DNA from: an uncultured Anaerolineae bacterium
GTDB taxonomy: Bacteria; Chloroflexota; Anaerolineae; Fen-1058
Length of the DNA: 64,000 nucleotides
Reading direction: 5' to 3'
Assembly (NCBI GenBank): GCA_964353405.1
Contig: CAYGWJ010000121.1
Location: 2,421-66,420 of the forward strand
Part shown: one piece after another, positions 7,490-26,446 of the stretch
Position numbering within the stretch: position 1 is the stretch's first letter
How the letters are laid out: each line of letters begins with the position of its first letter
Position numbers and translations under genes: made by a program
The notes under the pieces: model-generated
Databases searched by the model: none
The model's input: the letters and a program-made list of their open reading frames with translations, nothing else
Told to the model about the DNA's origin: nothing

Positions 7490-9433
7490 TCATTCGGTCA
7501 TCAACTCTTGCAGTTCCGCCTTGAGTGTGGCACGCTGCTGGCGGTATTCCTTGTCCTGGATGCGGCCCGCTTCAAAGTCATCATCCAATTGGGCAATGGC
7601 GTCCAGCAATTCATCTTGTTCTGCTTCCACATCTTGTACTTCTTCTTCGACCCCTTCCGCTTGCCGACGTTGCCTCAACCAGACAAAGGCGACAATCGCC
7701 ACAGCCACCAGCAACAAAGCCGCGGCAACGATGAGAATAGGCGAAGCTGTCTGGCTGGTAGGGGCCGTCGTGCCAGACGCAGAAGCGCTCGGCGCGCCAC
7801 TGAGTTGAAGCGCAAGGCTCGCTCCGGCAGCCAGGTCGCTGCCGACAAAATTGACCATGTTGCCGCCCTGTGTGGGGCGCGTGCCTGACTCGGTCAACTG
7901 CGGGCTGGTCAGCTTGGCGCCACCTTCGGGCACCAAGACGTTGATACTTTTCACCGGATACGCCATGGGCACTTGCAGGTCAAGCTTTTTGGCATCGTAA
8001 GGCAAATCATACGAAACGAGAACCTGCGTCGTGCCGGCGCCGGGCGCAACCGCTTCCGTGTCCGCAAAGCCGTTATCCAGCGACTTGTAGCGTCCACCTA
8101 GTTCGCCATCCATAAAGCGGAGGCCTGTCGCGCCGGCAGGCAGTTGGAAGCGCGCTGAAAGCCCATCCGAGCCGATGTAGGCGCGGTCGCCTGTGTTGGA
8201 CACGACGTACACCACTCCAACGGTCGTGCTGCCCGGCGACACAAAATCAAAGAACATGTGCATCTGTGCGATGCTGATAGTGGCGGCATCCGCCGTCGTC
8301 TCGTAAACCGTGATCGGCGCCGTCAGCGTCAGGCCGCCGTGAGCAAACGACAGCGCCTCACTCGTATAGATCGCCTTCAGGTATTCAGCCTGGAGGCCAT
8401 ACATGATCGGCGTCGAGGCGTCGAGCTTGTCGAACACAAACTGGCCCTTTGCGTCTGCGGCAAGCGTACGCGTGAACATGAGGCTTGAGCCATCGGGCGA
8501 AAGCGCGTACAACGTCACCGGCAAATTGCCTGGCGGCTTGCCGCCCGGCGTGCCATTCACAAACGAACCCATGATAGTCGCTTCGCCTTTGGGCGCGGCG
8601 ATCTTGACCAAGTCCATCGAAAGCGAACGAACGTAATCGGCGGCAGCCTGCCGATCGGCCTGACTCACACCGGCCAAGCCCGGCATCGCACCCTTACCAT
8701 TCGCGATGGCGCGATGTACGGCATCGACGGCATCGAGATCAGACTGCGATTTGCTTACCATCTTGCTCGCATCCGAGATATCCGGCGTGGCCGTGTTGTC
8801 GGACTTGCCCGTCGCGCCGTGGCATGAGGCACATTTGTCCGTGTAAACGGCTTTGCCCCGGTCCAGTTGATCTTGCGGAATGGACAGCGTGTAGAGATAC
8901 GCCACCACATCCCAACGATCCTCCGCCGTGAGACTGGTGAAAGGCGGCATTCCCCTTTGGAGCCGGCCGTTCGAAATCACATTGAACCAATCGGTCGGTT
9001 TGACCGTGCGCACAAAAGCCACATCGGCCAGGTCTGGAAACTTGCCTCCCATGTTTGCGACGATCTGCTGGCTCTGAGGGCCATCGCCCTTGCCCGCTGC
9101 GCCGTGGCAGGCCAGGCAACGCGCTTCATATACGCCCTGCCCTCTTTGCGCGGCAGGCTGCCGTTGAGGGAGTGCCACCGGCACAGGTGCGCCGGCTGTC
9201 GGGATATCCACAGGCGGCAGCGTGCCCACGGGCTGTGCAGCGGCAGAGGTCGGTTGTGCTGCCCGCGTCGCGGCCGCGCCCGGCGGCGGAACGATCGGCG
9301 TGACGGGGCCTTGAGGCAACTCGCCGGCGGTGTTGCAGGACGAGAGAACAAAGAGCGCCACAAGAGCGAATACAACCAGGGTCAAACGCAGATTTTTCAA
9401 CGAGTTGCCTCCACGGTCAACGCTGCGCCGCAC
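7490..9433 (-). CDS. Membrane-anchored dihaem cytochrome c lipoprotein
   Basis: Built from two class-I cytochrome c domains, a ~350-aa beta-rich domain, one TM helix and a cytoplasmic coiled tail. The N-terminus has a lipobox (LSSC). Two CXXCH motifs (CLACHG, CASCHG) are each followed by a Met-containing GMPPF or GAMPGL segment. A TM helix (ILIVAAALLLVAVAIVAFVWL) precedes a tail reading LDDDFEAGRIQDKEYRQQRATL. Confidence 0.7.
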   Translation of the reverse strand: MRRSVDRGGNSLKNLRLTLVVFALVALFVLSSCNTAGELPQGPVTPIVPPPGAAATRAAQPTSAAAQPVGTLPPVDIPTAGAPVPVALPQRQPAAQRGQGVYEARCLACHGAAGKGDGPQSQQIVANMGGKFPDLADVAFVRTVKPTDWFNVISNGRLQRGMPPFTSLTAEDRWDVVAYLYTLSIPQDQLDRGKAVYTDKCASCHGATGKSDNTATPDISDASKMVSKSQSDLDAVDAVHRAIANGKGAMPGLAGVSQADRQAAADYVRSLSMDLVKIAAPKGEATIMGSFVNGTPGGKPPGNLPVTLYALSPDGSSLMFTRTLAADAKGQFVFDKLDASTPIMYGLQAEYLKAIYTSEALSFAHGGLTLTAPITVYETTADAATISIAQMHMFFDFVSPGSTTVGVVYVVSNTGDRAYIGSDGLSARFQLPAGATGLRFMDGELGGRYKSLDNGFADTEAVAPGAGTTQVLVSYDLPYDAKKLDLQVPMAYPVKSINVLVPEGGAKLTSPQLTESGTRPTQGGNMVNFVGSDLAAGASLALQLSGAPSASASGTTAPTSQTASPILIVAAALLLVAVAIVAFVWLRQRRQAEGVEEEVQDVEAEQDELLDAIAQLDDDFEAGRIQDKEYRQQRATLKAELQELMTE

Positions 9434-9933: not shown

Positions 9934-9940
9934 AGAGCCT

Positions 9941-10980: not shown

Positions 10981-11092
10981 TGTTTTGCGTGATGCGTGCC
11001 ATGTGCTGCGTGCTACGTGATGCGCGCTTCTCGTGTGACCTGGGCTCTGCGACTTGCATCCTGCCTCTTGCCTCTTGCATCTTGCTACCTCG

Positions 11093-13216
11093 TTATGCCT
11101 GTGCGGCTTTTAACGCTCTGCGCTCCACACTCAACGCTTTGCGCTCTTCGGCGGCATCCGGCCATGCGGCTACCAGCGTGCCCAGGATAAACACCAGCCC
11201 ACCCAGCCACAGCCAGTTGACCAACGGATTGATGAACACCTTGAACGTCGCCAGCGAACCGTCACTTTCCCAACCGCCCAACAGAACGTACAGGTCTTCT
11301 TTCATCGAGCTGAGCAGCGCGGGCGGCGTCATCCGCTCTCCGTTTGTGTATTGCTCCTGGTAGGGACGCATCGTCGTCAGGAGCTTGCCATTCTGCGAAA
11401 CCTCCACGCGCGCCGAGACAATGATCTTGTCCGCCTGGCCCGAAGGCACCAACTCTAACTGCCGAAACGTGATCTGGTACCCGCCGATGGACAGCGACCG
11501 GCCGACGGACAGCGCCTGTTGCGTCTCTTGCTGATACAGATGCGTCCCAAGGATGCCCACACCCATCAGTACGATGCCGGCATGCACCAGGTAACCTCCA
11601 TAGCGCCGCCGATTGCGCCCGATGAGATTCCACAGCGCAACCGGCCAGCTTTCACCCGTGGACTTGTGCCGCGCGCGCACGCCGCGCGCGTACTCTGCCA
11701 CGATGATCACGCCCGCATAGATCACCAGCGCAAAGCCCAACAAAGCCGCCCAGTTGTGAATGCCCAGCACATAGATGATGACCACGGCCACCAGCGTGGC
11801 CGGGCCGGGGAGGTAAAGCGCGCTCTTGCCCAGCGCCTGAGGCGAAGCCGCTCGCCACGAAATGAGCGGCGCAATCCCCATCAGCAGCACAAGCGGAACG
11901 AGCAATGGACCCACCACGCTCTGATAGTACGGCGCGCCCACCGTGATCTTGTTGTCGGTGAACAACTCGGAGAAAATCGGAAAGTACGTGCCGATGGCAA
12001 CCGCCAGATTGACGATGAGGAACAAGGCATTCTGCGCGATAAAGGCCGCCTCGCGCGAAAGCAGACTATCGAGCTTGTTCTCGCTCTTGAGATCGTCCAG
12101 CCGAGCCAGCAGCAAACCGATCGAGCCGACCAGCATCACGCCCGTGAAGGCGAGGAACGGCACGCCGATGGACGAGCGGGCGAACGAGTGCACCGACGAG
12201 ATGACACCCGTGCGGGTGATGAACGTGCCGAGGATAACCTGCGCGAAGGTGAGAATGATGAGGAACATGTTCCACGTCTTGAACATCCCGCGCTTTTCCT
12301 GGATCATCACCGAATGCAAAAACGCCGTGCCGGAAATCCACGGCATGAGCGCGGCATTTTCGACCGCGTCCCAGCCCCAATAGCCGCCCCAGCCCAACAC
12401 GTCATACGCCCAACGCATTCCCAGCAAAAGACCGATGCCGAGAAACAACCAGGCCATCAATGTCCAGCGGCGCGTGGTGCGAATCCAGGCATCATTCGTC
12501 TTGCCGGTGATGAGCGCCGCCATTGCAAACGAATACGGGATCGTGAATCCGACAAATCCGAGGTACAGGAAGGGCGGGTGCGCGATCATGCCAGGATGAC
12601 GCAAGAGTGGAGCAAGTCCTTGTCCATCCAGAGGCGTATACGGCAGTGAGCCAAGCGGCGCGAACAAAGTCTGTGCGATACCCGAAAAGCCGATGCTGCT
12701 CAAAGTGCTGAACAAGCCGCTGGCGCCCAAGACGGCGCCGACAATGTCGCCCGTTGGCGTTTGCCACAACTTGGCAAAGGGATTCGCAAACAACACGACC
12801 AACGCGATAAAGAACGCTTGCGTGATTTCGGCGACGGCGATGACGTAAGCCATCAGGTCGCGGTTCTTGTCCCACTTGCGCGCCATCACACCCGCGACGA
12901 ACATTGACATCAACCACGACCAGAACAACAGCGATCCATTTTGTCCGCCCCATAAAGCCGTGATCTTTAATATCGCGGGCGTAGAAATACTGGTCACATG
13001 CGCGGTGTACTCGAGGCGGAAATTATTGGTGAGATTAGAGTAGATGATCAACAGTGCGGACAGCGTCAACAATGGAGTGATCACCAGCACTGCGTTGCGT
13101 GCGCTCTTGACCCAATCTTCCCGATGGCTCCGCGCGCCGTGTATCGCCGCCGCGATGGCGTAAACGCTTGCCACCAAAGCCAACAAGAGCGAAATCAATC
13201 CAATGTCGGTTATCAT
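11093..13216 (-). CDS. ccmF: Cytochrome c haem lyase subunit CcmF
   Basis: 707 aa polytopic protein with the WWD motif WGGYWGWDAVENAALMPW and conserved His residues. Confidence 0.9.
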   Translation of the reverse strand: MITDIGLISLLLALVASVYAIAAAIHGARSHREDWVKSARNAVLVITPLLTLSALLIIYSNLTNNFRLEYTAHVTSISTPAILKITALWGGQNGSLLFWSWLMSMFVAGVMARKWDKNRDLMAYVIAVAEITQAFFIALVVLFANPFAKLWQTPTGDIVGAVLGASGLFSTLSSIGFSGIAQTLFAPLGSLPYTPLDGQGLAPLLRHPGMIAHPPFLYLGFVGFTIPYSFAMAALITGKTNDAWIRTTRRWTLMAWLFLGIGLLLGMRWAYDVLGWGGYWGWDAVENAALMPWISGTAFLHSVMIQEKRGMFKTWNMFLIILTFAQVILGTFITRTGVISSVHSFARSSIGVPFLAFTGVMLVGSIGLLLARLDDLKSENKLDSLLSREAAFIAQNALFLIVNLAVAIGTYFPIFSELFTDNKITVGAPYYQSVVGPLLVPLVLLMGIAPLISWRAASPQALGKSALYLPGPATLVAVVIIYVLGIHNWAALLGFALVIYAGVIIVAEYARGVRARHKSTGESWPVALWNLIGRNRRRYGGYLVHAGIVLMGVGILGTHLYQQETQQALSVGRSLSIGGYQITFRQLELVPSGQADKIIVSARVEVSQNGKLLTTMRPYQEQYTNGERMTPPALLSSMKEDLYVLLGGWESDGSLATFKVFINPLVNWLWLGGLVFILGTLVAAWPDAAEERKALSVERRALKAAQA

Positions 13217-14241: not shown

Positions 14242-16536
14242 ATGAGACGCTATGCACTACCAGTGGGGATCGCCCTGTGCGTCGTCGGCCTGCTCGTCGT
14301 CCTGGCGGCCTGCGCCACGCCCACGCCCCCCCCTCCGCAAATCGTCAAAGAGACGGTCGTCGTCACCAAGGTCGTCGAGCCGACCAAGGCGCCGGCCGTC
14401 GCCGCAACGCTCGACCTGACAGCAAGCAAAAAGTCGCCCACGCTGCCATTCCTGGCTGACTGGCAGAAAGCGGGCCACTCTGATCCCACCGCAGAAGCCT
14501 TCAACCACTGGCCAACGGGTGGCGTGCCCACTGACTGCGCCAAGTGCCATACCTCTGAGGGATACCGCGAATTCGTCACCACCGGCAAGATCGAGAAGCC
14601 GATCCAGAACAGCGGCAGCTTGATCGACTGTGTCGCCTGCCACAACAGCGGCACGATGGATAAGACCAGTGTAAAGTTCCCCTCTGGCGCGACACTCAAG
14701 AACCTTGGCGCCGAAGCCCGCTGTATGGAATGCCACCAGGGCCGCGAGTCCACAGTCAGCGTGAACAACGTCATCTCCAACACCTTCAAGCTCAAGGATG
14801 CGGACGATGACACGGTTGTGAAACCGCTCGTGACAACGGACGCCGCTGGCAAAACCGTCACCACGACCTTCGGCTTCCGCAACATCCACTATTTCGCGGC
14901 TGCAGCCACGCAATATGGCACCCTGGCCAAGGGCGGTTACGAATACAAAGGCCAGTCGTATGACAGCAAGTTCCAACATCCTGAGCCGTATGACACCTGT
15001 GTGGGCTGCCACAACCAGCACACGTTGGAGTTGAAGCTGAAGGAATGCGCCACCTGCCATACTGGCGTCACCAAAGTCGAGGACATCGCCAAGATCCGCA
15101 TGAACGGCTCGCTAATGGACTATGACGGCGACGGCAATGCGAAGGAAGGGATCGCCGAGGAGTTGGCGGGCCTGCAGGAAAAACTGCTCGCCGCCATCCA
15201 GGCGTATGCCAAGGAAGTCGGCAAGGCCGACATCGCCTACAGCTCAACGGCTTACCCGTACTTTTTGGCGGACAAGAATGGCAACGGCAAGGCCGATGCT
15301 GATGAGACGGGAGTGTACACCGCCTGGACCCCGCGTCTGCTGAAGGCTACCTACAACTACCAGGTCGCCAGCAAGGATCCTGGCAAGCTGGCGCACAACG
15401 CCAAGTACGTCATCCAGTTGATGCACGATTCGATCGCGGATCTGAACACCAAGCTGGCCAAGCCGGTGGACATCGCGAAGGCAGTACGCAATGATGCCGG
15501 CCACTTTGATGGCACCGCTATGGCGTTCCGCGATTGGGATGCGGAGGGCGAGGTTCCGGCGGGCTGCGCCAAGTGCCACAGCGCCAAGGGCCTGCCTGAA
15601 TTCCTGGAGAGCGGCGGCACAGTCGCTGTGACGGCCGCCGGCTCGATCGTGACGACCGGCGTCGGCCCACAGGAAACCGCCAACGGTTTCGCCTGCACCA
15701 CCTGCCACAGCGACCTGACCAAGTTCACGGTGCGCCCGGTGGTGAATGTGCCGTTCCCCAGCGGCAAGAGCCTCACCTTCAGCAAGGAGAAGGATGACAA
15801 GGGCGCGCTCAAGCCAGTGGCTGCCAACCTGTGCCTGGAATGCCACCAGGGCCGCCAGTCCACGGCCGCCGTCAATACCAGGATCAAGGGCATTGACGAA
15901 GACAAAGTGGATGCCAAGGCCGCCTTCGCCAATGTGCACTACTTTGCCGCGGGCGCCACGCTCTTCGGCGATGCTGCGCAGGTCGCCTACCAGTATGATG
16001 GCAAAAAGTACGCCGGCCAGAATGCGCATGCGCCTGGCTTCGACACCTGCACCGGCTGCCACAGCACGCACGAACTCGGGGTCAAGATGGACAAGTGCGT
16101 GACCTGCCATGCCGGCGTCAAGACGCCCCAAGACATCCGCATGAACGCCAAGGATTTCGATGGCGACAAGGATGTGAAAGAAGGCATCTCGGCCGAGGTG
16201 ATGGCGCTAGAAGACAAGCTGTACGCGGCGATCATTGACTACAGCAAGACACTCACCAAGACAGCGATCGCCTACAACTCGGGCGCCAATCCGTACTTCT
16301 TCGTTGACACGAATGGCGATGGCAAGGCCGATGCGAAGGAGGCCGTGAGCGCCAATCGCTGGGCGGATTGGACGCCGCGCCTTCTCAAGGCCGCCTACAA
16401 CTACCAGTACGTCCAGAAGGATCCGGGCGCCTTTGCGCACAACCCCAAGTACGCCATCCAGATCCTCTACGATGCGCTGGAGGATCTCGGCAAGAAGGTC
16501 AAGGTGAACATGACGGGCCTGGCGCGGCCAGAGTAA
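14242..16536 (+). CDS. Decahaem c-type cytochrome lipoprotein with internal two-fold duplication
   Basis: Lipobox LAAC. Ten CXXCH motifs: CAKCH, CVACH, CMECH, CVGCH, CATCH, CAKCH, CTTCH, CLECH, CTGCH and CVTCH. The two halves align (...NGNGKADADETGVYTAWTPRLLKATYNYQ... against ...NGDGKADAKEAVSANRWADWTPRLLKAAYNYQ...). Confidence 0.85.
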   Translation: MRRYALPVGIALCVVGLLVVLAACATPTPPPPQIVKETVVVTKVVEPTKAPAVAATLDLTASKKSPTLPFLADWQKAGHSDPTAEAFNHWPTGGVPTDCAKCHTSEGYREFVTTGKIEKPIQNSGSLIDCVACHNSGTMDKTSVKFPSGATLKNLGAEARCMECHQGRESTVSVNNVISNTFKLKDADDDTVVKPLVTTDAAGKTVTTTFGFRNIHYFAAAATQYGTLAKGGYEYKGQSYDSKFQHPEPYDTCVGCHNQHTLELKLKECATCHTGVTKVEDIAKIRMNGSLMDYDGDGNAKEGIAEELAGLQEKLLAAIQAYAKEVGKADIAYSSTAYPYFLADKNGNGKADADETGVYTAWTPRLLKATYNYQVASKDPGKLAHNAKYVIQLMHDSIADLNTKLAKPVDIAKAVRNDAGHFDGTAMAFRDWDAEGEVPAGCAKCHSAKGLPEFLESGGTVAVTAAGSIVTTGVGPQETANGFACTTCHSDLTKFTVRPVVNVPFPSGKSLTFSKEKDDKGALKPVAANLCLECHQGRQSTAAVNTRIKGIDEDKVDAKAAFANVHYFAAGATLFGDAAQVAYQYDGKKYAGQNAHAPGFDTCTGCHSTHELGVKMDKCVTCHAGVKTPQDIRMNAKDFDGDKDVKEGISAEVMALEDKLYAAIIDYSKTLTKTAIAYNSGANPYFFVDTNGDGKADAKEAVSANRWADWTPRLLKAAYNYQYVQKDPGAFAHNPKYAIQILYDALEDLGKKVKVNMTGLARPE

Positions 16537-16848: not shown

Positions 16849-18000
16849 ATGATGGGACGCACTCGACGTCACATCCCAATCAGTCTGCTCGTCGCACTGA
16901 TGGCATTGGCTATCGCCGCACTCGTGTTCAGCACGGCCTCGGCCAGCGGGGCGAACGGCCCGGTCGCTTTGCCGACCATGCCGCCCACGCCGACGGGCGC
17001 GGATAACCAAAAGTGCCTGGCCTGCCACTCCAATCCGGCCCAGCAGATGAAGGCCGCCAACGGAGAGATCATCTCGCTCTACGTTGATCCAGACGCTCTC
17101 AAGAGCTCGGTGCATGGCGCCAAGAATGTGGCCTGTGTCCAGTGCCATAGCAACCTCTCAGGCTATCCGCACCCGGAGTACAAGCCAGCCGACCGGCGGC
17201 AAGTAACACTTGATCTCTACCAAGCCTGTAAACAATGCCACGGCGACAACTATCAAAAGACGTTGGACAGCGTTCACCAGAAAGCACTCGCTTCGGGCAA
17301 CCGCCTGGGCGCGACCTGCGCCGACTGCCACGGCGCGCACGACGTCCGCCCGCCCGATCAGCCGCGCTGGCGCATCGCTCTGACGTGCAGCAAGTGCCAC
17401 GGTGCGATTTTTAACCAGTACAAGGACAGCGTGCATGGCTCGGCACTGCAACAGGACAACCCCGATGTGCCCAGTTGCGTGGACTGTCACGGCGTGCACA
17501 ACATTCCTGACCCGATGACGCAGGCCTTCCGATTAAAGTCACCCACAGAGATGTGCGGCAAGTGCCACACCGATGCCAAACGCATGAGCAAATACAACAT
17601 CTCCACCGCCGTGCTCAATACCTACGTGGCCGACTTTCATGGCACCACCACCACGCTCTTCAAGAAGCAATCGCCTGACCAGGTTACAAACAAGCCCGTC
17701 TGTTTTGACTGCCACGGCGTGCACGAGATTGCCAACACCAAAGACCCCAAGGGCGGCCTGGCCATCAAGACCAACATGCTCAAAGCCTGCCAAAAATGCC
17801 ACCCGGACGCCACGACCGAAACCTTTGCCGCTTCGTGGACGAGCCATTACGAGCCTTCCCCGACCAGGTACCCGGTCGTCTACTATATTGACCTGTTCTA
17901 CAAGATTCTGATTCCGGCCGTGCTGGGCTTTATGATCTTGATGGTGCTCCTGGATGCTTTCTGGCGCATTCGCAATCGTTTTGCGGGGAAGGAGATCTAG
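16849..18000 (+). CDS. Nonahaem c-type cytochrome with a C-terminal membrane anchor
   Basis: Signal peptide. Nine CXXCH motifs (CLACH, CVQCH, CKQCH, CADCH, CSKCH, CVDCH, CGKCH, CFDCH, CQKCH). C-terminal TM helix ILIPAVLGFMILMVLL. Confidence 0.85.
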   Translation: MMGRTRRHIPISLLVALMALAIAALVFSTASASGANGPVALPTMPPTPTGADNQKCLACHSNPAQQMKAANGEIISLYVDPDALKSSVHGAKNVACVQCHSNLSGYPHPEYKPADRRQVTLDLYQACKQCHGDNYQKTLDSVHQKALASGNRLGATCADCHGAHDVRPPDQPRWRIALTCSKCHGAIFNQYKDSVHGSALQQDNPDVPSCVDCHGVHNIPDPMTQAFRLKSPTEMCGKCHTDAKRMSKYNISTAVLNTYVADFHGTTTTLFKKQSPDQVTNKPVCFDCHGVHEIANTKDPKGGLAIKTNMLKACQKCHPDATTETFAASWTSHYEPSPTRYPVVYYIDLFYKILIPAVLGFMILMVLLDAFWRIRNRFAGKEI

Positions 18001-18001
18001 C

Positions 18002-19525
18002 ATGGCCACCGAATCTCGAAAAATCTCGAGCCAAATCGCTCGTGGACAATATATCCGCTTTGATGTGCTGCAGCGAATAGAGCACATTCTTCTGCTGGTA
18101 TCGTTCACACTGTTGGGCATTACGGGCTTGATCCAGAAATTCGCGGCTTGGCCTGTCTCGGATGCGACCATCCAGTTCTTGGGCGGCATCGAAATGACGC
18201 GCCAGATACACCATATCAACGCCGCCATCATGATCATCCTGTCGGCCTACCACTTTGTGGAGGCGGGCTATCGGGTCTTTGTGCTGCGCGCGCGCATGAG
18301 CATGCTGCCCATGCTGAGCGACTTTACCGAGTGGTGGCAAGACACGACTTACAAGCTTGGGCTGACCAAGGCGCCGGCCAAGTTCGGGCGCTACAACTAT
18401 GGCGAAAAGATGGAATACTGGGCCTTGATCTGGGGCACAGTCGTCATGGGCATCACGGGCTTTATGCTGTGGAATCCCATCACCACGGCCAGGTTGGTTC
18501 CAGGCGAGTGGATTCCGGCCGCCAAAGCCGCGCACGGCGCCGAAGCGATCCTGGCGGTGCTCGCCATCATCATCTGGCACTTTTACAATGTGCACATCAA
18601 GATGTTCAACAAAGCCATGCTCACGGGCAAGCTGGATGAACACCAGATGGCGCACGAGCATGGCCGCGAGCTGGAAGCCATCGCTCGCGGCACGGCCGGC
18701 CGCAAGATTGACGCGCTGGTGCTGCGCCGCCGCCAGGTGATCTACTTTCCCCTCGCCACGGTGCTGGGAGTTGTGATGGCTTTCGGCATCTTTAAATTCC
18801 TCACCCTCGAGAATACTGCACCGATCAAGACCGTGCCGCCTGCGGTCAACGTCGCAGTACTAGTCACGGCAACGCCGCAACCCACGCCGACGCGCGCTCC
18901 GACCGCCGTGCCGACGACCGCTCCGACCCAAGCCCCATCGGCTGGCCAGGCACCGGCAACAGGCGGCGGCACCGCATTTGCAGATGTGCAAGCCATCCTC
19001 AAAGCCAAGTGCGGCGCCTGTCATGGCGATGCGGCGACCGCAGGTTTGAGCGTCAATACCTACGCCTCGCTGATGAAGGGAGGCGCGAGCGGAGCCGTCA
19101 TTGTCGCCAAAGATGCTGAAGGCAGCCCGTTGATCAAGAAGGTCACCGGCGCCCACCCCGGTCAATTCTCAGCGGACGAGCTGGCCGCTATCAAAGCCTG
19201 GATTGCAGCGGGCGCAGCCGAAGGTGGAGCACCCGCTGCTGCGCCCGCTCCGGCAGCCGGCGGCAAAGTGACCTTTGTCAAAGACATCCAGCCCATCTTT
19301 ACCGCCAAGTGCGCGGCCTGTCACGGCGTCATGGGCGGATTGACCTTGACCTCGTTTGAAAGTGTGATGCACGGGGGCACGTCCGGCCCGGCCGTTACAC
19401 CCAAGGACCCCGCCAAGAGTTCCATCATCACGAAACAAATCGCAGGCGGCCACCCCGGCCAACTCACAGCGGAGGAAATCGATTTGGTTCGCAAGTGGAT
19501 TGCGGACGGCGCAGCCGAGCAGTAA
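18002..19525 (+). CDS. Dihaem cytochrome b (FdnI/hydrogenase b-type family) fused to two monohaem cytochrome c (PSCyt-like) domains
   Basis: The N-terminus RFDVLQRIEHILLLVSFTLLGITGL followed by His-bearing helices matches b-type cytochrome PF01292. A PT-rich linker follows. Two repeats, FADVQAILKAKCGACHG... and FVKDIQPIFTAKCAACHG..., each end in ...GAHPGQ. The ATG at 18002 abuts the upstream stop. Confidence 0.8.
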   Translation: MATESRKISSQIARGQYIRFDVLQRIEHILLLVSFTLLGITGLIQKFAAWPVSDATIQFLGGIEMTRQIHHINAAIMIILSAYHFVEAGYRVFVLRARMSMLPMLSDFTEWWQDTTYKLGLTKAPAKFGRYNYGEKMEYWALIWGTVVMGITGFMLWNPITTARLVPGEWIPAAKAAHGAEAILAVLAIIIWHFYNVHIKMFNKAMLTGKLDEHQMAHEHGRELEAIARGTAGRKIDALVLRRRQVIYFPLATVLGVVMAFGIFKFLTLENTAPIKTVPPAVNVAVLVTATPQPTPTRAPTAVPTTAPTQAPSAGQAPATGGGTAFADVQAILKAKCGACHGDAATAGLSVNTYASLMKGGASGAVIVAKDAEGSPLIKKVTGAHPGQFSADELAAIKAWIAAGAAEGGAPAAAPAPAAGGKVTFVKDIQPIFTAKCAACHGVMGGLTLTSFESVMHGGTSGPAVTPKDPAKSSIITKQIAGGHPGQLTAEEIDLVRKWIADGAAEQ

Positions 19526-19649
19526 TTCTTTGTGATGGGTTTCAGCCGATCCCAGGCAACGCAGCCCTACACGACGTTGAGGGGCCGCTAGGACAAAGAC
19601 CGGGGGTTTTGAGGTATGGGCAACTGATTGCCCAACAAAGGAGATACGC

Positions 19650-21731
19650 ATGTCAGATGATCCCAAGTCAAACGTTCCACATTCATCCTCTGAGGCCACC
19701 CCAGTCGCCGGCGCGGTGACAAACAAGCCTCGCTCTTTTGGGTCGAGGTTCTGGTCCAGGGTCAGCACCAACAAATGGCTGATGACCGGCACGATCGTCG
19801 TCACGCTGCTGATCCTGTTTGGGCTTTTCTTGGGCGGGATAGCTGTTTTTGACTGGAGTGAATCCACGGCGTTTTGTTCACTCTGTCACGTGATGAAGCC
19901 CGAGTACACGGCGTATCAAAGCTCGCCGCACTCTCGCGTGGAGTGCGGCACCTGCCACGTCGGCCCAGGCCCCACTGCCGCCGTCAAGGCCAAACTGGCC
20001 AACGTCCGATACCTGTGGGTGGCTCCCACCGGCTGGCATGAAAGGCCCATCCCTTCTCCCATCACCAGCCTACGCCCGGTCGAAGTGGTTTGCGAACAAT
20101 GCCACTGGCCGGAAAAGTTTTATCAGGATCGCCTGGCGACCGTCCCGCACTATGCAGAGGATGAGAACAACCGCCTGACGCAAATCAAGTTGCTCCTCAA
20201 GACTGGCGGCGGAACGCAAAACGCTGGCCAGGGACGCGGCATCCACTGGCACATCGCCAATCCCGTTTACTATATCGCGACCGACAAGCAGCGGCAGGAG
20301 ATAGACTGGGTTCAGGCTACTTTTGGCGGCAAGACAACCGAGTACCTCGCGACAGACAGCAAGCTGACGCCGGAGCAAATCGCCAAAGCCGAAAAGCGCA
20401 AGATGGACTGCGTTGACTGCCACAACCGCGCGACGCACGTCTTCCAGCGGCCAGGCGAGGCGCTCGACGCCGCCCTGGCAGCGGGCACCATCCCTGCCAA
20501 CTTGCCCTTCATCAAGCGCGAAGGGACCCAAGTACTGGAAAAGACCTACACGACCGAAGACCAAGCCGCCCAAGCGATCGCCGCTGTGGAAGACTTTTAT
20601 CGGACACAGTACCCCATGGTCTATAACAACCGCAAGGCGGATGTCCAGAAAGCCGTCGCCGGATTGCAGGCCATTTTTGACAGCACCCAGTTCCCCTTTA
20701 TGCGAGTGACCTGGGAGTCGCATCCGACGAACATCGGCCACAAGGATTTTGCAGGCTGCTTCCGCTGCCACGATGGCAAGCACCTGAGCCGAGACAACCA
20801 GGCCATCCGGCTCGAGTGCAATATCTGCCACAGCATCCCGCAGGTCATCACCCCGGACAAGACCACTGCGGCGCTGCCTCTGACCATCGGCATCGAACCG
20901 GATTCGCACAGAAGCACGACCTGGCTTGCGGAGCATCGTACCCGTTTCGATGCCACCTGCGCCAATTGCCACACAACCGGCAATGCCGGGGGCAATGACA
21001 ACAGTAGTTTTTGCAGCAATAGCGCCTGTCATGGCGCGAACTGGAAATTTGTCGGGCTGAACGCGCCCGGGGTGCGCCAACCGGGTCAACCTGCTCAACC
21101 TGCCCAACCGGCTCAGGGCAAGCCGCCTGCGATTCCGCATGATTTGGCCGGGCGCGACAACTGCCTGACGTGCCACAATCCTGATGGCGGCATCAAGCCC
21201 GCGCCCAAGGATCATGCCGGGCGCACGATTGACACATGCCAGGCATGTCACAAACCGACGACGGCTGCCCGTCCAACCGCAGCACCGACGGCGGCCGCCC
21301 CGACCACTGCGCCTTCAGAGGCGCCGACCAAGACAGCGGCCACGGCAACACCCGCCGCGCCGGCTGGAGGCGGCGCGCCGCCTGCCATTCCGCATGATTT
21401 GGCCGGGCGCGACAACTGCCTGACGTGTCACAATCCCGAGGGCGGCCTCAAGCCCGCACCGAAGGATCACGCCGGGCGCGCGAACGACACGTGCCTGGCG
21501 TGCCACAAGCCGTCAACGACCGCGCCTGCAGCTGCACCCACCAAGGCGGTAACTGCCACACCGGCTGCACCGTCAGGCGGCGAAGCGCCGCCGGCCATTC
21601 CGCATGACCTGGCCGGGCGCGACAACTGCCTGACGTGTCACAATCCCGAGGGCGGCCTCAAGCCCGCGCCCAAGGATCACGCCGGGCGTACGAACGATGC
21701 TTGCCAGGCCTGCCACAAGCAAAAGTCGTGA
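19650..21731 (+). CDS. NapC/NirT-family membrane multihaem cytochrome ending in three paired-CXXCH repeats
   Basis: N-terminal TM, then CSLCHVM, CGTCHVG, CEQCHW and CVDCHN, which match the NapC/NirT/NrfH quinol dehydrogenase fold. Further on are CFRCH, CNICH, CANCH and the variant CSNSACH. The protein ends in a three-fold repeat of PAIPHDLAGRDNCLTCHNPEGGLKPAPKDHAGRTNDxCxACHK separated by Ala/Pro/Thr linkers, about 14 haems in total. Confidence 0.8.
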   Translation: MSDDPKSNVPHSSSEATPVAGAVTNKPRSFGSRFWSRVSTNKWLMTGTIVVTLLILFGLFLGGIAVFDWSESTAFCSLCHVMKPEYTAYQSSPHSRVECGTCHVGPGPTAAVKAKLANVRYLWVAPTGWHERPIPSPITSLRPVEVVCEQCHWPEKFYQDRLATVPHYAEDENNRLTQIKLLLKTGGGTQNAGQGRGIHWHIANPVYYIATDKQRQEIDWVQATFGGKTTEYLATDSKLTPEQIAKAEKRKMDCVDCHNRATHVFQRPGEALDAALAAGTIPANLPFIKREGTQVLEKTYTTEDQAAQAIAAVEDFYRTQYPMVYNNRKADVQKAVAGLQAIFDSTQFPFMRVTWESHPTNIGHKDFAGCFRCHDGKHLSRDNQAIRLECNICHSIPQVITPDKTTAALPLTIGIEPDSHRSTTWLAEHRTRFDATCANCHTTGNAGGNDNSSFCSNSACHGANWKFVGLNAPGVRQPGQPAQPAQPAQGKPPAIPHDLAGRDNCLTCHNPDGGIKPAPKDHAGRTIDTCQACHKPTTAARPTAAPTAAAPTTAPSEAPTKTAATATPAAPAGGGAPPAIPHDLAGRDNCLTCHNPEGGLKPAPKDHAGRANDTCLACHKPSTTAPAAAPTKAVTATPAAPSGGEAPPAIPHDLAGRDNCLTCHNPEGGLKPAPKDHAGRTNDACQACHKQKS
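21118..21731 (+). repeat. Three near-identical tandem DNA repeats (~240 bp unit) encoding paired-CXXCH dihaem modules
   Basis: The run ccgcatgatttggccgggcgcgacaactgcctgacgtg(c/t)cacaatcc... occurs three times, starting at ~21136, ~21379 and ~21598. The repeats generate spurious alternate-frame ORFs. Confidence 0.85.
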
Positions 21732-21745
21732 TCGAACCGCCTTGC

Positions 21746-21763
21746 AACAGCGAATTCGTTGTT
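21746..21763. promoter_or_regulatory. 18-bp palindromic element AACAGCGAATTCGTTGTT, copy 1, upstream of the sensor kinase
   Basis: Imperfect palindrome with an internal GAATTC. It is the reverse complement of copies 2 and 3. Confidence 0.5.
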
Positions 21764-21781
21764 CTGGACGAATTGAATCGA

Positions 21782-23743
21782 ATGAGCACTACCGCCCTGG
21801 GATACATCTACTTTTTCTACGGCCTCGCGTTTTTTGCGATGGGGCTGGCGGTGGTGCTGGAAGCGGGCCGGACCAGCGAGTTGCGGTTCGCGCACTCGAT
21901 GCCGTGGCTGGCGGCCTTTGGCCTGACCCATGGCTTGCACGAGTGGTTTGAAATGTTTGAGGTGATGGGGCAATTGCCCCCTGGCCTGCCGCTGGGAGCA
22001 ATTCACCTCATCCTCCTGGTTGTCTCGTTTGCCTGCCTGGCAGCGTTCGGAATCAGCCTGGGCCGGACCGAGAGCGCGGCGCCGTTGGGCGCCATGTGGC
22101 GAACGCTGGCGCTCATCGGGTTCAGCCTGGGCGGCATGATCGTGTTGCGGCTCTGGCTGCCGCAGTCCGATTGGTGGGGAGCCGCCAGCGTCTGGGCGCG
22201 TTACAGCCTGGGGATCGTCGGCGCCATCGTTACCAGTTGGTCGCTCATTTCTCAAGGGCAAGTCTTTGCCAGGCTGGGCATGGCGCATTTTGGGCGCGAC
22301 CTGATCTGGGCAGCGCTGGCCTTTGCCCTGTATGGCATCGTCGGCCAGATGTTTGTGTCCAAGAGCGCGCTGCCGCCTTCGAACTTTATCAACTCTGATT
22401 TGTTCCTGCGGCTGTTCGGTGCGCCTGTTCAGTTGTTCCGAGGCGCGATCGCGATGGTGCTGGCCGTCACCATCATCCGCGCGCTGCGCGTGTTCGAGAT
22501 CGAACGCACACAGCGACTGCGCGCAGCGGAGCTGACGGCCCAGGAAGCTGAGCGGCGCGTCCAACAGGAAACGGCGCACCTGAACCGCCAATTGCAGGAA
22601 GCGGTCAACGAGCTATCCATCCTGTTTGAAATGTCGCGCATCCTGGCGGCCACGCTGGACTGGCAGGCTGTGCTTCAACAAGCCGTCGTCAAGGTCGTTG
22701 ACCTGCTGCCCGCTCGCGCGGCGATGATCCTGCTGGAAACGGATCCGCCGGGAAGCTGCGCCGCGAGCACAGGCTTTTGCCGCGCAGAGTTGGCTGGCGC
22801 CGCCCAGAGCATAGGTCGGGCCGTCATCACCGCCAACGCCGATAACAACGAATTCGCTGTTCCGCCCGAGATGCGCGTGCTGGCTCCGATGATGGCCGTG
22901 CCTTTGCACCTTTCGGGCAAGCGCGGTCTCATCGGCAGCCTGGTCATTTGCGTGAGCGACGTGCACATCTTTGAACCCAAGCGGTCGCTATTGCTCACGC
23001 TGGGCCGTGAGCTGGCCATCGCCATCGAAAACGCCCGGCTTTACCAGCAAGTCCAAGAGCGCGAGATGGTGCGCGGCGAACTGCTGCGGCGTTCGGTGCA
23101 GGTTCAGGAAGAAGAGCGCAAGCGCATCGCCCGCGAGCTGCACGACGGCATCGGCCAGATCTTTACCGCGCTGGCGCTGGGGCTTTCGGGTGTAGAAGAA
23201 ACCATGCCGCGTGACCCGGCGCTGGCGCGCAAGCAAATCGGCAATCTCAAAGACTTGGCCGTTCGCGCCATCTCTGAGCTGCGTCAACTGGTGGCCGATC
23301 TGCGGCCCGCGCAGTTGGACGACCTGGGCCTGGCGCCCGCGCTCCACTGGCTGACCGACGAGTGGCGCGACCGGCTTCACATGGATGTGCGCGTTCAAAT
23401 TCTAGGCCAGCGCCGTCGCCTGTCGTCGGAAATGGAAACCGTGCTGTTTCGCATCACGCAAGAAGCGTTGACCAACGTCGCCAAGCACGCCAACGCGCAG
23501 CGCACCGCCGTCAAGCTGGCTTTTGGCGATGACCAGGTCGAGCTGGTCATCGAGGATAATGGCATCGGCATGACGCCGGAACAAATGTACCGCCGCCAGG
23601 TTCGCCATCAAGGCTGGGGACTGGCTGGCATCCAGGAACGCGCCGCTCTCGTCGGCGGCACATTCGATATTGACTCGGCGCCGGGGCGAGGCACCCGGTT
23701 GACCGTCCACATCCCACTTGGTGGCGAGGAGGCCGTTGCATGA
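21782..23743 (+). CDS. Polytopic sensor histidine kinase with GAF, HisKA_3 and HATPase_c domains (NarX/LiaS-type)
   Basis: The ATG at 21782 (MSTTALGYIYFFYG) opens a ~7-TM N-terminal sensor domain. A GAF-like region and the HisKA_3 H-box (RIARELHDGIGQ) follow. G-box: DNGIGM...GWGLAGIQERAALVGG. The ORF-track start at 21635 is a repeat artefact. Confidence 0.85.
   Translation: MSTTALGYIYFFYGLAFFAMGLAVVLEAGRTSELRFAHSMPWLAAFGLTHGLHEWFEMFEVMGQLPPGLPLGAIHLILLVVSFACLAAFGISLGRTESAAPLGAMWRTLALIGFSLGGMIVLRLWLPQSDWWGAASVWARYSLGIVGAIVTSWSLISQGQVFARLGMAHFGRDLIWAALAFALYGIVGQMFVSKSALPPSNFINSDLFLRLFGAPVQLFRGAIAMVLAVTIIRALRVFEIERTQRLRAAELTAQEAERRVQQETAHLNRQLQEAVNELSILFEMSRILAATLDWQAVLQQAVVKVVDLLPARAAMILLETDPPGSCAASTGFCRAELAGAAQSIGRAVITANADNNEFAVPPEMRVLAPMMAVPLHLSGKRGLIGSLVICVSDVHIFEPKRSLLLTLGRELAIAIENARLYQQVQEREMVRGELLRRSVQVQEEERKRIARELHDGIGQIFTALALGLSGVEETMPRDPALARKQIGNLKDLAVRAISELRQLVADLRPAQLDDLGLAPALHWLTDEWRDRLHMDVRVQILGQRRRLSSEMETVLFRITQEALTNVAKHANAQRTAVKLAFGDDQVELVIEDNGIGMTPEQMYRRQVRHQGWGLAGIQERAALVGGTFDIDSAPGRGTRLTVHIPLGGEEAVA
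22844..22861. promoter_or_regulatory. 18-bp element AACAACGAATTCGCTGTT, copy 2, inside the kinase coding sequence
   Basis: Exact match to copy 3. It encodes NNEFAV in the GAF region. Confidence 0.35.
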
Positions 23744-24411
23744 CGATCAAGATTGTGCTCGTGGACGATCACGAGATCGTGCGGGCGGGCCTGAGGATGC
23801 TGCTCAGCTCGCACTCGGACATTGAGATCATCGGCGAGGCTGAAAACGGCCAGCAGGCCTTGCAGCTCTGCCAAAAGAACCCGCCCGATGTCGTCATTAT
23901 GGACATCACCATGCCGGGCCTCAGTGGGCTTGAAGTCACGCGCCAGATCAAGCAGCAATGCCCCAACACGGCCGTGCTGGCGCTCACCATCCACGAAGGC
24001 GAGCAATACTTTTTCGAGATGCTCAACGCGGGCGCTTCCGGTTACGTCCCTAAACGCGCCGCGCCCACCGACCTGGTGAATGCCATCCACGCTGTGTATT
24101 CCGGCGAAGTGTACCTGCATCCAAGCGTCGCCAAGGCGCTCGTCAACGATTACATCCAACGTGTTCAGATGGGCTGGGAGCGCGCCAGCTACGACGGACT
24201 GACCGACCGCGAGCAGCAGGTCCTCAAGATGATTGCCGAAGGCATGATGAACAAAGAGATCGCCGAAAAGCTCTCGATCAGCGTGCGGACGGTGGAGCGG
24301 CATCGAGAGAACATTATGGCCAAGCTCAACCTGCACACGCGGGCCGAGCTGGTGCGCTATGCGGTAGACAAGGGACTGATTGACATCAGCAACAAGCCGC
24401 CTTCAGAGTAG
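23740..24411 (+). CDS. NarL/FixJ-family response regulator (REC plus LuxR-type HTH)
   Basis: REC domain sequence IVLVDDHEIVRAGLRMLL...VVIMDITMPGLSG...LALTIHEGEQ. LuxR HTH LTDREQQVLKMIAEGMMNKEIAEKLSISVRTVERHRENIMAKL. The gene overlaps the kinase stop. Confidence 0.9.
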   Translation: MTIKIVLVDDHEIVRAGLRMLLSSHSDIEIIGEAENGQQALQLCQKNPPDVVIMDITMPGLSGLEVTRQIKQQCPNTAVLALTIHEGEQYFFEMLNAGASGYVPKRAAPTDLVNAIHAVYSGEVYLHPSVAKALVNDYIQRVQMGWERASYDGLTDREQQVLKMIAEGMMNKEIAEKLSISVRTVERHRENIMAKLNLHTRAELVRYAVDKGLIDISNKPPSE

Positions 24412-24538: not shown

Positions 24539-24556
24539 AACAACGAATTCGCTGTT
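24539..24556. promoter_or_regulatory. 18-bp element AACAACGAATTCGCTGTT, copy 3, in the intergenic region between the two response regulators
   Basis: Exact 18/18 match to copy 2. Confidence 0.5.
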
Positions 24557-24602: not shown

Positions 24603-24633
24603 AAGTTGGGACGTGTGCCCAATTGACGTGTCA
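24603..24633 (+). promoter_or_regulatory. 31-bp promoter-like element, copy 1, upstream of the second response regulator
   Basis: Sequence AAGTTGGG-N5-TGCCCAATTGACGTGTCA. It contains a TTGAC -35-like hexamer and a TGAC-NN-GTCA palindrome. Confidence 0.45.
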
Positions 24634-24806: not shown

Positions 24807-25404
24807 ATGATGATCCGAGTCGTTCTGGTGGATGACCAGGAGATTGTGCGCGCCGGGCTGCGCCTGCTGCTCCAATCTCAGACAGACATGGACATCGTAG
24901 GCGAGGCCGGCGATGGCGCCGAGGCGCTCGCACTTTGCCGCCAGGTTTCTCCCCACGTTGTGATCACCACCATCGAACTGCCGGGCCTCAATGGTTTCGA
25001 GCTCGCGCGCAAGCTCAAAGCGCAAAGACCCACAGCACTTTTTCGAGATGATCAGTGCGGGCGCATCCGGCTACCTCCCCAAGCGCACTGCCACCGCTGA
25101 CCTGGTGACCGCCATCCGCACCGTCCATGCGGGTCAAATGTACATACATCCCACGGGTTATCACCAGCGCACCTACGCAAGCCATGAACGCCCCCGCCCC
25201 AACGACCTGGAGCCGCATGAACAGCTCGTCCTCGTCATGATTGCCCAAGGAGCGCAAAACAAGCAAATCGCGCTGCGGCTTGGGGTCAATGTGAGAACCG
25301 TGGCGCGCTATCGAGCGAATATCGAGAACAAGCTCAACCTGCACAGCCGGGCCGACCTGGTGCGCTATGCGGTGGACAAGGGCCTGGTGAGCGCGGCCCC
25401 CTAG
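24807..25404 (+). pseudogene. NarL-family response regulator paralog disrupted by an internal deletion and frameshift
   Basis: ORFs 24807..25100 and 24991..25404 lie in two different frames, and both align to the upstream regulator. The segment equivalent to NTAVLALTIHEGE is missing (about 41 nt; the conserved Thr of the REC domain is lost). The C-terminal LuxR HTH is intact. Confidence 0.55.
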
Positions 25405-25566
25405 AGCGCTGGCGACCAGGCAAAAATGCATCGTCCTGCTCGCACTCCCTCATTGCGCATGGGTTTCCCCCCCCCACACACCCCCTCATTCATTGACGGT
25501 TGCCCCACTTGAATCGTGCGTGACTACCCTCTAGGGTGATCAGAATATTGGGGATATGGGCGCAAC

Positions 25567-25597
25567 AAGTTGGGTGGCCTGCCCAATTGACCTGTCA
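25567..25597 (+). promoter_or_regulatory. 31-bp promoter-like element, copy 2, upstream of the octahaem cytochrome operon
   Basis: AAGTTGGG-N5-TGCCCAATTGACCTGTCA. It is 26/31 identical to copy 1, with identical spacing. Confidence 0.45.
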
Positions 25598-25663
25598 TGG
25601 GGCAATGTGATACCTTTGTGTCAGCAGAACCAGGTGAATGGCCTACACACAAAGGAGAAGAAA

Positions 25664-26446
25664 ATGTCCACTACACGCGTTGTCTTTGCCGTCTTTCTCA
25701 TGACCGTTGTGACGGCGTTCGTGGTGAGTGTGTGCGCGGCAGGAGTGGCGTATGCCGCTGGCCCTGAGCCACAGCAACAACCAGACTGCGCCACTTGCCA
25801 CTCGGAAGTCGCCAAGACGTGGGGAGGGGGCAAACATGCTATCAAAGGTATTGCCTGCACGGCATGTCACCAGCCCGGCCCCAATGCCCACCCTGGCAGC
25901 CCGATAGGTGTTGACAAGTCGGCCGCGTTTTGCAGCACTTGCCATTCCGCCGCGGGCACAGAGTGGCAAACGAGCGGTCATGGCAAGGCCAACGTCGCGT
26001 GCACTTCGTGCCACGACATGCACTCAGCCTCGCTCAAGTTCAAGGCGCCGACTGACCTGTGCGCAAGCTGCCACAAGGAGCGCGAAGACCAAAGCAACAT
26101 GCCGATGGACAGCTCGACCAACGCGTGCATCAACTGCCATATGCACAGCACGGCTTCCGGCACAACCGCCACCAACCCCACTCCCTCCAACCACTCTTTC
26201 GTCATGGGAGCGGACGCCTGCCAGCGCTGCCACAAGGATAATGTCCACACAGCGCATCAAATCATTTCTACGGTTTTGCCCCAGCCTGGCGCCGACAAGC
26301 CCGTCCAACAACTTGTGCCCACCGCAACGCTTGCCGCCGCGAGTGCCGCATCGAACGGCGTCTCGGCCTGGCCCAACATCATGGGCGGCGTGATCGGAGG
26401 GCTTTTGCTTGGCTTTATTTCGGCTGTCGTCGTGGTAAGGAGATAG
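25664..26446 (+). CDS. Octahaem c-type cytochrome with a C-terminal TM anchor (NrfB/QrcA-like electron-transfer subunit)
   Basis: AAGGAG Shine-Dalgarno before the ATG at 25664. Signal peptide. CXXCH motifs: CATCH, CTACH, CSTCH, CTSCH, CASCH, CINCH and CQRCH. C-terminal TM helix IMGGVIGGLLLGFISAVVVV. Confidence 0.8.
   Translation: MSTTRVVFAVFLMTVVTAFVVSVCAAGVAYAAGPEPQQQPDCATCHSEVAKTWGGGKHAIKGIACTACHQPGPNAHPGSPIGVDKSAAFCSTCHSAAGTEWQTSGHGKANVACTSCHDMHSASLKFKAPTDLCASCHKEREDQSNMPMDSSTNACINCHMHSTASGTTATNPTPSNHSFVMGADACQRCHKDNVHTAHQIISTVLPQPGADKPVQQLVPTATLAAASAASNGVSAWPNIMGGVIGGLLLGFISAVVVVRR

Follow-up and report, generated by a model that had tools for sequence, protein, structure and literature searches.

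We analysed a 64,000-nucleotide (nt) stretch of DNA from an uncultured Anaerolineae bacterium (contig CAYGWJ010000121.1, hereafter the window), in which one gene encodes a multihaem cytochrome c ending in three tandem copies of a paired-CXXCH module. The reading that we favour, and hold with moderate confidence, is that this protein is a membrane-anchored 14-haem cytochrome of the NapC type, that its three-module tail is old and has been partly homogenised, and that it acts as a tethered electron relay. The cytochrome would then be an uncharacterised combination of two known kinds, a NapC/NirT-type core and a PgcA-like tethering of Paired_CXXCH modules. No paper on this cytochrome family turned up in our literature searching.

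Relatives are referred to by locus (L###) or by homologous protein (P####). L001 comes from an independent Joint Genome Institute (JGI) metagenome assembly and is 99.2% identical in nt to the window gene in the N-terminal part. L168 is a relative at ~87% nt identity, L002 and L087 are 79% and 76% identical, and P0016, from a 2-kb short-read contig, is 82% identical.

Architecture of the cytochrome

The features of the gene are as follows, with amino acids (aa) numbered on the encoded protein and model confidence given as the AlphaFold predicted local distance difference test score (pLDDT).

19650..21731, + strand: multihaem cytochrome c gene, 693 aa, membrane-anchored (open reading frame (ORF) list, motif count, Pfam PF03264/PF09699/PF14522)
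19773..19847, + strand: single N-terminal transmembrane anchor, ~aa 42-66, with a basic stretch before it (hydropathy, AlphaFold helix)
19848..20459, + strand: NrfH/NapC-like tetrahaem region, CXXCH at aa 76, 99, 148 and 254 (phmmer match to NrfH structure 2j7a_C)
20757..21032, + strand: four more core haem sites, CXXCH at aa 370, 390 and 437 and CX4CH (CSNSACH) at aa 455-461 (motif count, invariant columns)
21078..21115, + strand: coding 9-nt microsatellite CAACCGGCT x4.2, encoding QPA repeats, lead-in to module 1 (Tandem Repeats Finder)
21123..21257, + strand: two-haem module 1, aa 492-536 (repeat alignment; AlphaFold pLDDT 74-80 at aa 500-530)
21258..21377, + strand: linker 1, ~40 aa, Ala/Pro/Thr-rich, predicted disordered (pLDDT <50 at aa 539-575)
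21378..21512, + strand: two-haem module 2, aa 577-621 (repeat alignment, AlphaFold)
21513..21587, + strand: linker 2, ~25 aa, hypervariable between near-identical strains (comparison with L001)
21588..21722, + strand: two-haem module 3, aa 647-691, then Lys-Ser and the stop codon, 21729-21731 (repeat alignment)

The 693-aa protein contains 13 CXXCH motifs and one CX4CH motif. Its Kyte-Doolittle profile (19-residue windows) peaks at 2.81 at aa 49, windows above 1.6 start only at aa 42-53, and the AlphaFold helix at aa 42-66 coincides with this sole hydrophobic stretch of the protein. The basic residues before the helix suggest that this stretch is cytoplasmic and that the haem domain lies outside the membrane. 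The first haem motif, CSLCHVM, has the CXXCHXM form of NrfH, and C76, C79, H80 and M82 are invariant in 34 homologues. Pfam NapC/NirT (PF03264) matched aa 42-124 above its gathering score (34.7 bits, cut-off 24.1), and phmmer matched the NrfH structure 2j7a_C at E 1.1e-5 over aa 67-153 and 240-270, the second segment lying around the fourth haem motif. Ahead of this fourth CXXCH, between haems 3 and 4, ~100 residues are inserted. NrfH was the only solved relative of the core found by sequence. The other Pfam matches of the protein were Paired_CXXCH_1 (PF09699, three stretches), cytochrome c7 and cytochrome c3. All NCBIfam equivalogs were sub-threshold, namely TIGR03153 (NrfH, 44.9 against 134.2), TIGR02161 (NapC, 16.6 against 310.6) and NF011606 (TorC, 22.9 bits against a cut-off of 455), and by this measure the cytochrome is not orthologous to NrfH, NapC or TorC.

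Near the 3' end of the gene lie three direct repeats, in which PPAIPHD starts at nt 21123, 21378 and 21588 (aa 492, 577 and 647). The repeat peptide, PPAIPHDLAGRDNCLTCHNP(D/E)GG(I/L)KPAPKDHAGR(T/A)xDxCxACHK, occurs thrice in the last 200 residues. An initial annotation of this DNA had given the pattern as PAIPHDLAGRDNCLTCHNP(D/E)GG(I/L)KPAPKDHAGR(T/A)xDxCxACHK, which is exact, and the three-fold repeat inside 19650..21731 was confirmed. Its description of ~240-bp units more than 90% identical needs correction: the spacings are 255 and 210 nt, the stop codon trims the third unit to 141 nt, and conservation is confined to a 135-nt core with pairwise identities of 88.1% (copies 1-2), 85.2% (1-3) and 89.6% (2-3). 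The modules are 89-91% identical at the protein level, while whole units are 48-70% identical counting all alignment columns and the linkers between modules are ~50% identical in DNA. Tandem Repeats Finder, run over 19000-24000, reported no array at the module repeat, because the linkers are too diverged, and returned only the 9-nt microsatellite at 21078-21115, whose (QPA) repeat number differs in P0006, P0008 and P0016. A separate repeat search yielded one 175-nt family here at 76-86% identity. The module core had no further match at an identity of at least 70% anywhere in the 64-kb window; therefore the repeat is genuine, and not due to chance.

Each module holds two CXXCH motifs and two further invariant His within 45 residues. 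Its four His and four Cys are invariant in the 34 homologues and in an alignment of 29 diverse modules (His at module positions H5, H17, H30 and H42), and nine module positions are invariant family-wide. The invariant His suggest that each module would carry two bis-His haems. The description of the units as paired-CXXCH two-haem modules with Ala/Pro/Thr linkers stands, with PF09699 matching three stretches at 54 bits against a cut-off of 20.6. The best solved relative found with a profile of the 29 modules was the repeat unit of chain 6r2q_A (E 3e-4). We take 6R2Q to be the MtrCAB complex and its chain A to be MtrA, a point on which the name in the search table is silent. In the AlphaFold2 model, pLDDT is 74-87 in the modules and <50 in the linkers, which measure 41 and 26 aa when counted from a 44-aa module. 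Across 257 linkers of the family, 63% of residues are Ala, Pro or Thr and the median length is 26 aa.

Proposed function

We propose that the NrfH-like core oxidises menaquinol on the outer side of the membrane. From there electrons would run via its eight haems to the three two-haem modules of the tail, which, as "beads on a string", would deliver them by tethered diffusion to cytochromes encoded upstream or further out through the envelope. Candidate partners are the lipoprotein decahaem, the MtrA/DmsE-like nonahaem and the cytochrome b-c fusion of the same gene cluster. Since ~40 and ~25 disordered residues separate them, the modules would be unable to form one fixed haem chain. An electron-wire function is plausible, and the flexible linkers would favour a tethered relay over a rigid wire. 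Reach would be set by module number and linker length. Across the family the tail is a variable appendage of none to ~5 modules. Every copy of the array is under purifying selection, and the linkers drift and take insertions and deletions.

The modules could instead be docking or adhesion elements, such as wall anchors or mineral-binding beads, or a haem capacitor. Pro/Thr/Ala-rich repeats of secreted proteins are often tied to adhesion or mineral binding (compare PgcA, PMC5732950), and six extra low-spin haems would raise electron storage. However, the axial His and the Cys are all invariant and the ratio of nonsynonymous to synonymous divergence (dN/dS) is ~0.1, which argues that redox-competent haems are conserved, and the fusion to a quinol-dehydrogenase-like core fits a conduit, as do the conserved cytochrome neighbours. 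We consider it unlikely that adhesion or storage takes the place of electron transfer, and the relay and adhesion or storage readings are not mutually exclusive.

Comparison with known systems

We compared the cytochrome to characterised multihaem proteins. In common with NrfH, NapC and CymA (structures 2j7a/2vr0) are the single N-terminal transmembrane helix, the CXXCHXM first motif and ~90 aligned residues. Those proteins have 4 haems, whereas the window protein has 14, through four extra core sites and six tail haems, and no NrfA-like or NapAB-like partner gene adjoins it. TorC and DorC likewise extend a NapC-type core at the C-terminus by a haem domain that passes electrons on to a partner. 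In TorC the addition is one monohaem domain without low-complexity linkers, whereas the window protein adds a variable two-haem array on long Ala/Pro/Thr linkers. Its modules are related to the Paired_CXXCH proteins MtrA, DmsE and NrfB (PF09699, TIGR01905), as seen in the PF09699 match and in the 6r2q_A unit found by the module profile, ENCVTCHNPHGS...CQQCH. In MtrA and NrfB these units are packed as one continuous haem chain without linkers, while the window modules are parted by 25-40 residues predicted to be disordered.

The tail is reminiscent of PgcA from Geobacter sulfurreducens, in which haem domains on (PT)x linkers span up to 180 Å and which is described as the first of a tethered-diffusion class (PMC11520253). 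PgcA homologues hold one to six CXXCH motifs, the number differing by species (PMC5732950). Shared features are small haem domains parted by Pro/Thr or Pro/Ala low-complexity linkers, which in the window protein are putatively flexible, and a variable domain number. PgcA, however, is secreted as a lipoprotein, its domains are monohaem and its linkers are strict (PT)x repeats, whereas the window protein has a membrane-anchored core, putative bis-His two-haem beads and irregular Ala-rich linkers. General Pfam and NCBIfam scans of the window protein returned no PgcA-related family, and no homology search was aimed at PgcA. By analogy the cytochrome may work in a PgcA-like manner while not being a member of the PgcA family.

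In the monoderm Thermincola, a membrane multihaem quinol oxidase feeds wall-spanning cytochromes (PMC7911101). The likeness to this ImdcA-PdcA-CwcA-OcwA system is one of description: there the task is split among proteins, whereas the window polypeptide may itself hold part of the reach. Ardenticatena, a member of the Chloroflexota and a relative of the Anaerolineae, is reported to have surface cytochromes and a presumed monoderm envelope (PMC5808234).

A wider proposal, which we put forward tentatively and regard as possible but doubtful, is that the Chloroflexota family forms a second, independent class of tethered-diffusion carriers. It would consist of a quinol dehydrogenase with an extensible two-haem string, in which duplication, loss and conversion tune the reach to envelope thickness or acceptor distance. 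The range behind this idea is 0 to ~5 beads with linkers of 10-85 aa, and linker length differs even between 99%-identical strains. If the mechanism holds, nature provides a series in which the same quinol-oxidising core carries none to ~5 tethered two-haem modules. Such a series would permit a direct test of tether length and bead number in cross-envelope electron transfer, for which PgcA has so far been the only case. The family is abundant in Anaerolineae of sediments, soils and reactors, where little is known about what underlies extracellular electron transfer.

Age and variation of the tail

Divergence between copies was calculated as Nei-Gojobori dS and dN over the module cores, and divergence between orthologues as dS over the N-terminal domain. 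Between copies dS is 0.48 (1-2), 0.81 (1-3) and 0.42 (2-3), with dN of ~0.05. For the N-terminal domain of the window protein, dS is 0.03 to L001, 0.75 to L002 and 0.85-1.05 to four other relatives, such that the copy-to-copy values are >10x that between window and L001 and comparable to that between window and L002. At identical residues the same codon is used in 69-80% of cases between copies, compared to 56-68% in diverged orthologues and 98% in the comparison with L001. All three copies recur in L001, where they carry the copy-specific substitutions seen in the window. L168 has three units, at spacings of 271 and 222 nt, and its linkers are closest to the window linkers of the same position (63% and 66%, compared to 57% and 46% for linkers out of position). 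In the module tree the window modules are not grouped as a separate clade. Because of the dS values, the codon use, the copies in L001 and the units and linkers of L168, we conclude from sequence comparison that the three-unit array is old, predates the split of lineages 13-15% apart in DNA and is shared by them.

Across the family the tail is more changeable. The database search returned >7,400 homologues, one of the source names being 'NapC/NirT family cytochrome c [Anaerolineae bacterium]'. In the matches listed, almost every GTDB species representative that carries the gene is a Chloroflexota metagenome-assembled genome (MAG) of Anaerolineales, Caldilineales or Ardenticatenaceae, and a few are binned as Acidobacteriota, Binatia or other phyla. 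In the best 120 homologues with parsable tails, two modules were counted in 25, three in 50, four in 32 and five in 9. P0016 has one module; close relatives span 1-5 modules and distant ones 0 to ~5, and the tails of more distant GTDB relatives hold 0 to 11 CXXCH motifs. Architectures such as A-C, A-C-C-C-C, A-B-B-C, C-C and C-C-C indicate that the numbers of B-type and C-type modules vary. Pooled module identity is 55.6% within and 52.2% between proteins, a comparison that is uninformative since the family mixes at least three module types.

Units duplicated more recently are present, by sequence identity and grouping, in some other lineages. For L084, identity between units 1 and 2 is 95% in module and linker alike, and in the tree these units fall with unit 3 and the orthologous L086 unit 2 rather than with L086 unit 1 (bootstrap 97-98%). 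The first two units of L002 show 95% identity over the module and 86% over the linker (bootstrap 100%). Bootstrap values for within-gene module pairs are 98, 100 and 87%. The longest exact runs shared by copy pairs of the window gene are 28, 41 and 58 nt, the 58-nt run lying between modules 2 and 3 (permutation P = 0.003) and the 41-nt run between modules 1 and 2 (P = 0.03). The modules of L168 are 93-94% alike, above any positional orthologue in the window (at most 92.5%), while its linkers keep positional identity. Since the identical runs are long and L168 is homogenised within the gene, these patterns point to occasional intragenic gene conversion of the cores, in addition to gain and loss of units. 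A 'grafting and pruning' model describes haem modules gained or lost at the end of a conserved core (PMC9250108; bioRxiv 10.1101/2025.05.29.656830). Relative to that model, the grafted unit here is a tandem module plus linker, with DNA evidence of duplications after the origin of the family and of gene conversion.

The linkers are the fastest-changing part of the gene. In linker 2, L001 (6790-6900) has a 33-nt in-frame insertion and ~75 nt that are heavily diverged from the window, the gene being otherwise 99% identical. This local hotspot suggests recombination with a diverged allele or very relaxed constraint.

The similarity of the cores might also reflect protein constraint and codon bias alone, the three modules being ancient and neither converted nor duplicated since the family arose. 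The modules are indeed 89-91% identical as protein with nine family-wide invariant positions, and the identical-codon fraction of 69-80% is only modestly over a saturated baseline of 56-68%. Such constraint sits poorly with the 58- and 41-nt runs, which span many synonymous sites and are unlikely by chance, with the L168 modules that are closer within the gene than to their positional orthologues, with the 95% (L084) and 86% (L002) identity of weakly constrained linkers, and with the 87-100% bootstrap of within-gene pairs. We judge constraint on its own to be an improbable explanation.

Still less probable, and in our estimate very unlikely, is the origin put forward in the initial annotation, a recent slipped-strand or unequal-recombination triplication in this genome that leaves a rapidly variable, contingency-like copy number differing between strains. 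It could appeal to the 85-90% DNA identity of the cores, the copy-number differences among relatives, the younger duplicated units in L084 and L002 and the linker 2 indel between two 99%-identical strains. Against this, the copies differ by a dS of 0.42-0.81, compared to 0.03 for L001 and 0.75 for L002; the linkers are only ~50% identical; L001 is identical in copy number and copy-specific substitutions; the same three-unit layout occurs in L168 at 87% nt identity; and the window modules are not monophyletic. Nor does the repeat resemble those of contingency loci, with cores 85-90% and linkers ~50% identical and no Tandem Repeats Finder array. Variation in module number, which that annotation also expected, holds across the family (0 to ~5) and does not extend to close range, where the two close relatives compared, L001 (99%) and L168 (87%), have three units each, as does the window.

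An assembly artefact, in which a metagenome assembler inflated or collapsed the repeat number, is barely credible: although the window is apparently metagenome-assembled, repeats are a classic cause of misassembly and frameshifts occur inside modules in P0020 and the L168 contig, the copies differ at 14-20 of 135 positions with exact runs of 28-58 nt, which normal reads can resolve, the independent JGI assembly L001 repeats all three copies with their private substitutions, L002 and L003 (ENA, JGI) are concordant, and L168 has three units too. The contig name and the many frameshifted genes of L168 suggest that it is a long-read assembly. In P0020 the third unit is read in an alternate frame, and several frameshifts lie across the operon in L168 (2117-4300). 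Errors of sequencing or assembly at the repeat are the most likely cause; a decaying module is the alternative.

Several points weigh against the joint reading of an anchored cytochrome whose old, partly homogenised tail acts as a tethered relay. Scores far under the NrfH, NapC and TorC cut-offs mean that the putative quinol-dehydrogenase role rests on remote similarity and the CXXCHXM motif, and we infer that quinol is oxidised and haem loaded, where the protein is located and in which direction electrons flow. The AlphaFold2 model of the whole protein is poor, with a mean pLDDT of 59.8 and a predicted template modelling score (pTM) of 0.35, and being haem-free it cannot show docking of the modules on each other or on the core. 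A Foldseek search with this model against the PDB gave chance matches only (all E >0.4). The model is informative only for the contrast between ordered modules and disordered linkers, and the low linker pLDDT is compatible with disorder without proving it. The close homologues L084, L085 and L086 stand alone, outside a cytochrome cluster, and the proposed partners are accordingly not universal. The dS values of 0.42-0.81 carry a wide error, with ~30 synonymous sites in each 135-nt core. Some relatives' module counts come from short-read metagenome contigs, in which near-identical repeats could be collapsed; the single module of P0016 on its 2-kb contig is an example where this could apply. For annotation, it follows that short-read MAG copy-number calls for such repeat genes need checking.

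Alternate-frame ORFs and the kinase start

The repeat and the gene that follows it give rise to these features.

21184..21423 and 21425..21607, + strand: two alternate-frame ORFs born of the repeat, not genes (shared frame, recurrent peptide start)
21635..21781, + strand: spurious 49-codon extension of the kinase ORF, made of the alternate frame of module 3 and the intergenic spacer
21782..23743, + strand: sensor histidine kinase, 653 aa, with a membrane N-terminal domain, GAF, HisKA_3 and HATPase_c, starting at ATG 21782 (Pfam, alignment with the L001, L002 and L087 kinases)

A single alternate frame, read over modules 1, 2 and 3, gives ORF 21184..21423, ORF 21425..21607 and the opening 49 codons of ORF 21635..23743, and the last two start with the identical peptide MSQSRGRPQAR. 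Purifying selection acts on the cytochrome frame (dN/dS ~0.1, from dN ~0.05 and dS 0.4-0.8). The shared frame, the recurrent peptide and this selection bear out the initial annotation in treating ORF 21425..21607 as an alternate-frame artefact. It was also right that the first 49 codons of ORF 21635..23743 are artefactual and that ATG 21782 is the kinase start: in the alignment with three homologues, those of L001 and L002 among them, conservation sets in exactly at this Met, homologous kinases are annotated at 650 aa in L002 and L087, and in the L001 spacer a 17-bp duplication throws the upstream extension out of frame. Repeat-internal ORFs of this kind are not genes.

A consensus scan for a promoter or terminator between the cytochrome and the kinase found none. 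In L087 (4817-4891) the spacer between the two genes carries a 15-nt tandem repeat, TAACCGATCACCGAG x5, at the place where the window has an 18-nt palindrome and L001 its 17-bp duplication.

This exact 18-nt imperfect palindrome, AACAGCGAATTCGTTGTT (7-4-7 around GAATTC), has three copies within 2.8 kb of the window.

21746-21763: copy 19-36 nt upstream of the kinase ATG
22844-22861: copy in frame within the GAF region of the kinase
24539-24556: copy between the two regulator genes
L001 6804-6821 and 7082-7099: copies in L001

The chance expectation is 0.06 matches at up to 3 mismatches. The copy in the kinase lies within a 7-residue insertion (NADNNEF) that is not in L002 or L087. L001 has an extra copy within the 33-nt in-frame insertion of cytochrome linker 2 and a partial duplication of the copy in the spacer. 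The flanks of the copies share no similarity, and the motif was not found in the other 86 loci. The palindrome could be a tiny insertion motif or an operator, perhaps that of the adjacent regulator; the former appears to fit better, because of the in-frame copies in coding DNA and the absence from L002 and L087.

Genomic neighbourhood

The cytochrome gene lies in an order conserved in L001, L002 and L087: decahaem lipoprotein, nonahaem MtrA/DmsE-like cytochrome, cytochrome b with two c-type domains, the cytochrome gene, HisKA_3 kinase and LuxR-type regulator. In the window and in L002, a trio of multihaem cytochrome, 4Fe-4S protein and NrfD comes next after the regulator. Four of the neighbouring cytochromes of the window are listed here.

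14242-16536: decahaem cytochrome, 764 aa, with a lipoprotein signal (…VLAAC)
16849-18000: nonahaem cytochrome, MtrA/DmsE-like
17954-19525: cytochrome b (FdnI/Ni_hydr_CYTB type) fused to two monohaem c domains (PSCyt1)
25556-26446: heptahaem cytochrome ORF, 296 aa as listed

The 764-aa decahaem cytochrome is an internal duplication, with five CXXCH motifs in each half (aa 99-269 and 442-619), and is weakly similar to HmcA and to MtrC/MtrF domains. The cytochrome b/c fusion probably starts at ATG 18002 (MATESRK..., 507 aa), as in L001; the ORF as listed overlaps the preceding gene. The heptahaem cytochrome probably starts at an internal Met (MSTTRVV...) to give ~260 aa, another inflated ORF, because its L002 homologue has 262 aa and a 31-nt motif lies within the first 14 codons of the listed ORF.

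This motif, AAGTTGGGACGTGTGCCCAATTGACGTGTCA (TTGGG-N7-CCCAA plus TTGAC), occurs twice in the window, at 24603-24633 and 25567-25597, and again in L002 at 8976-9007 and 10044-10075. Copies precede both the second response-regulator gene and the multihaem / 4Fe-4S / NrfD operon, and the motif is probably a promoter or operator that these have in common. Of the LuxR-type response regulators, the second (24807-25404) is split in two frames, ORFs 24807..25100 and 24991..25404, and is intact in L002 at 223 aa; the frameshift represents either a pseudogene or an assembly error.

Just upstream of the cluster, 7490-13216 on the - strand encodes a CcmF-type cytochrome c maturation protein (11093..13216) and a dihaem class I cytochrome c (7490..9433). 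The 7-29 kb stretch of the window is wholly given to c-type cytochromes and their regulation.

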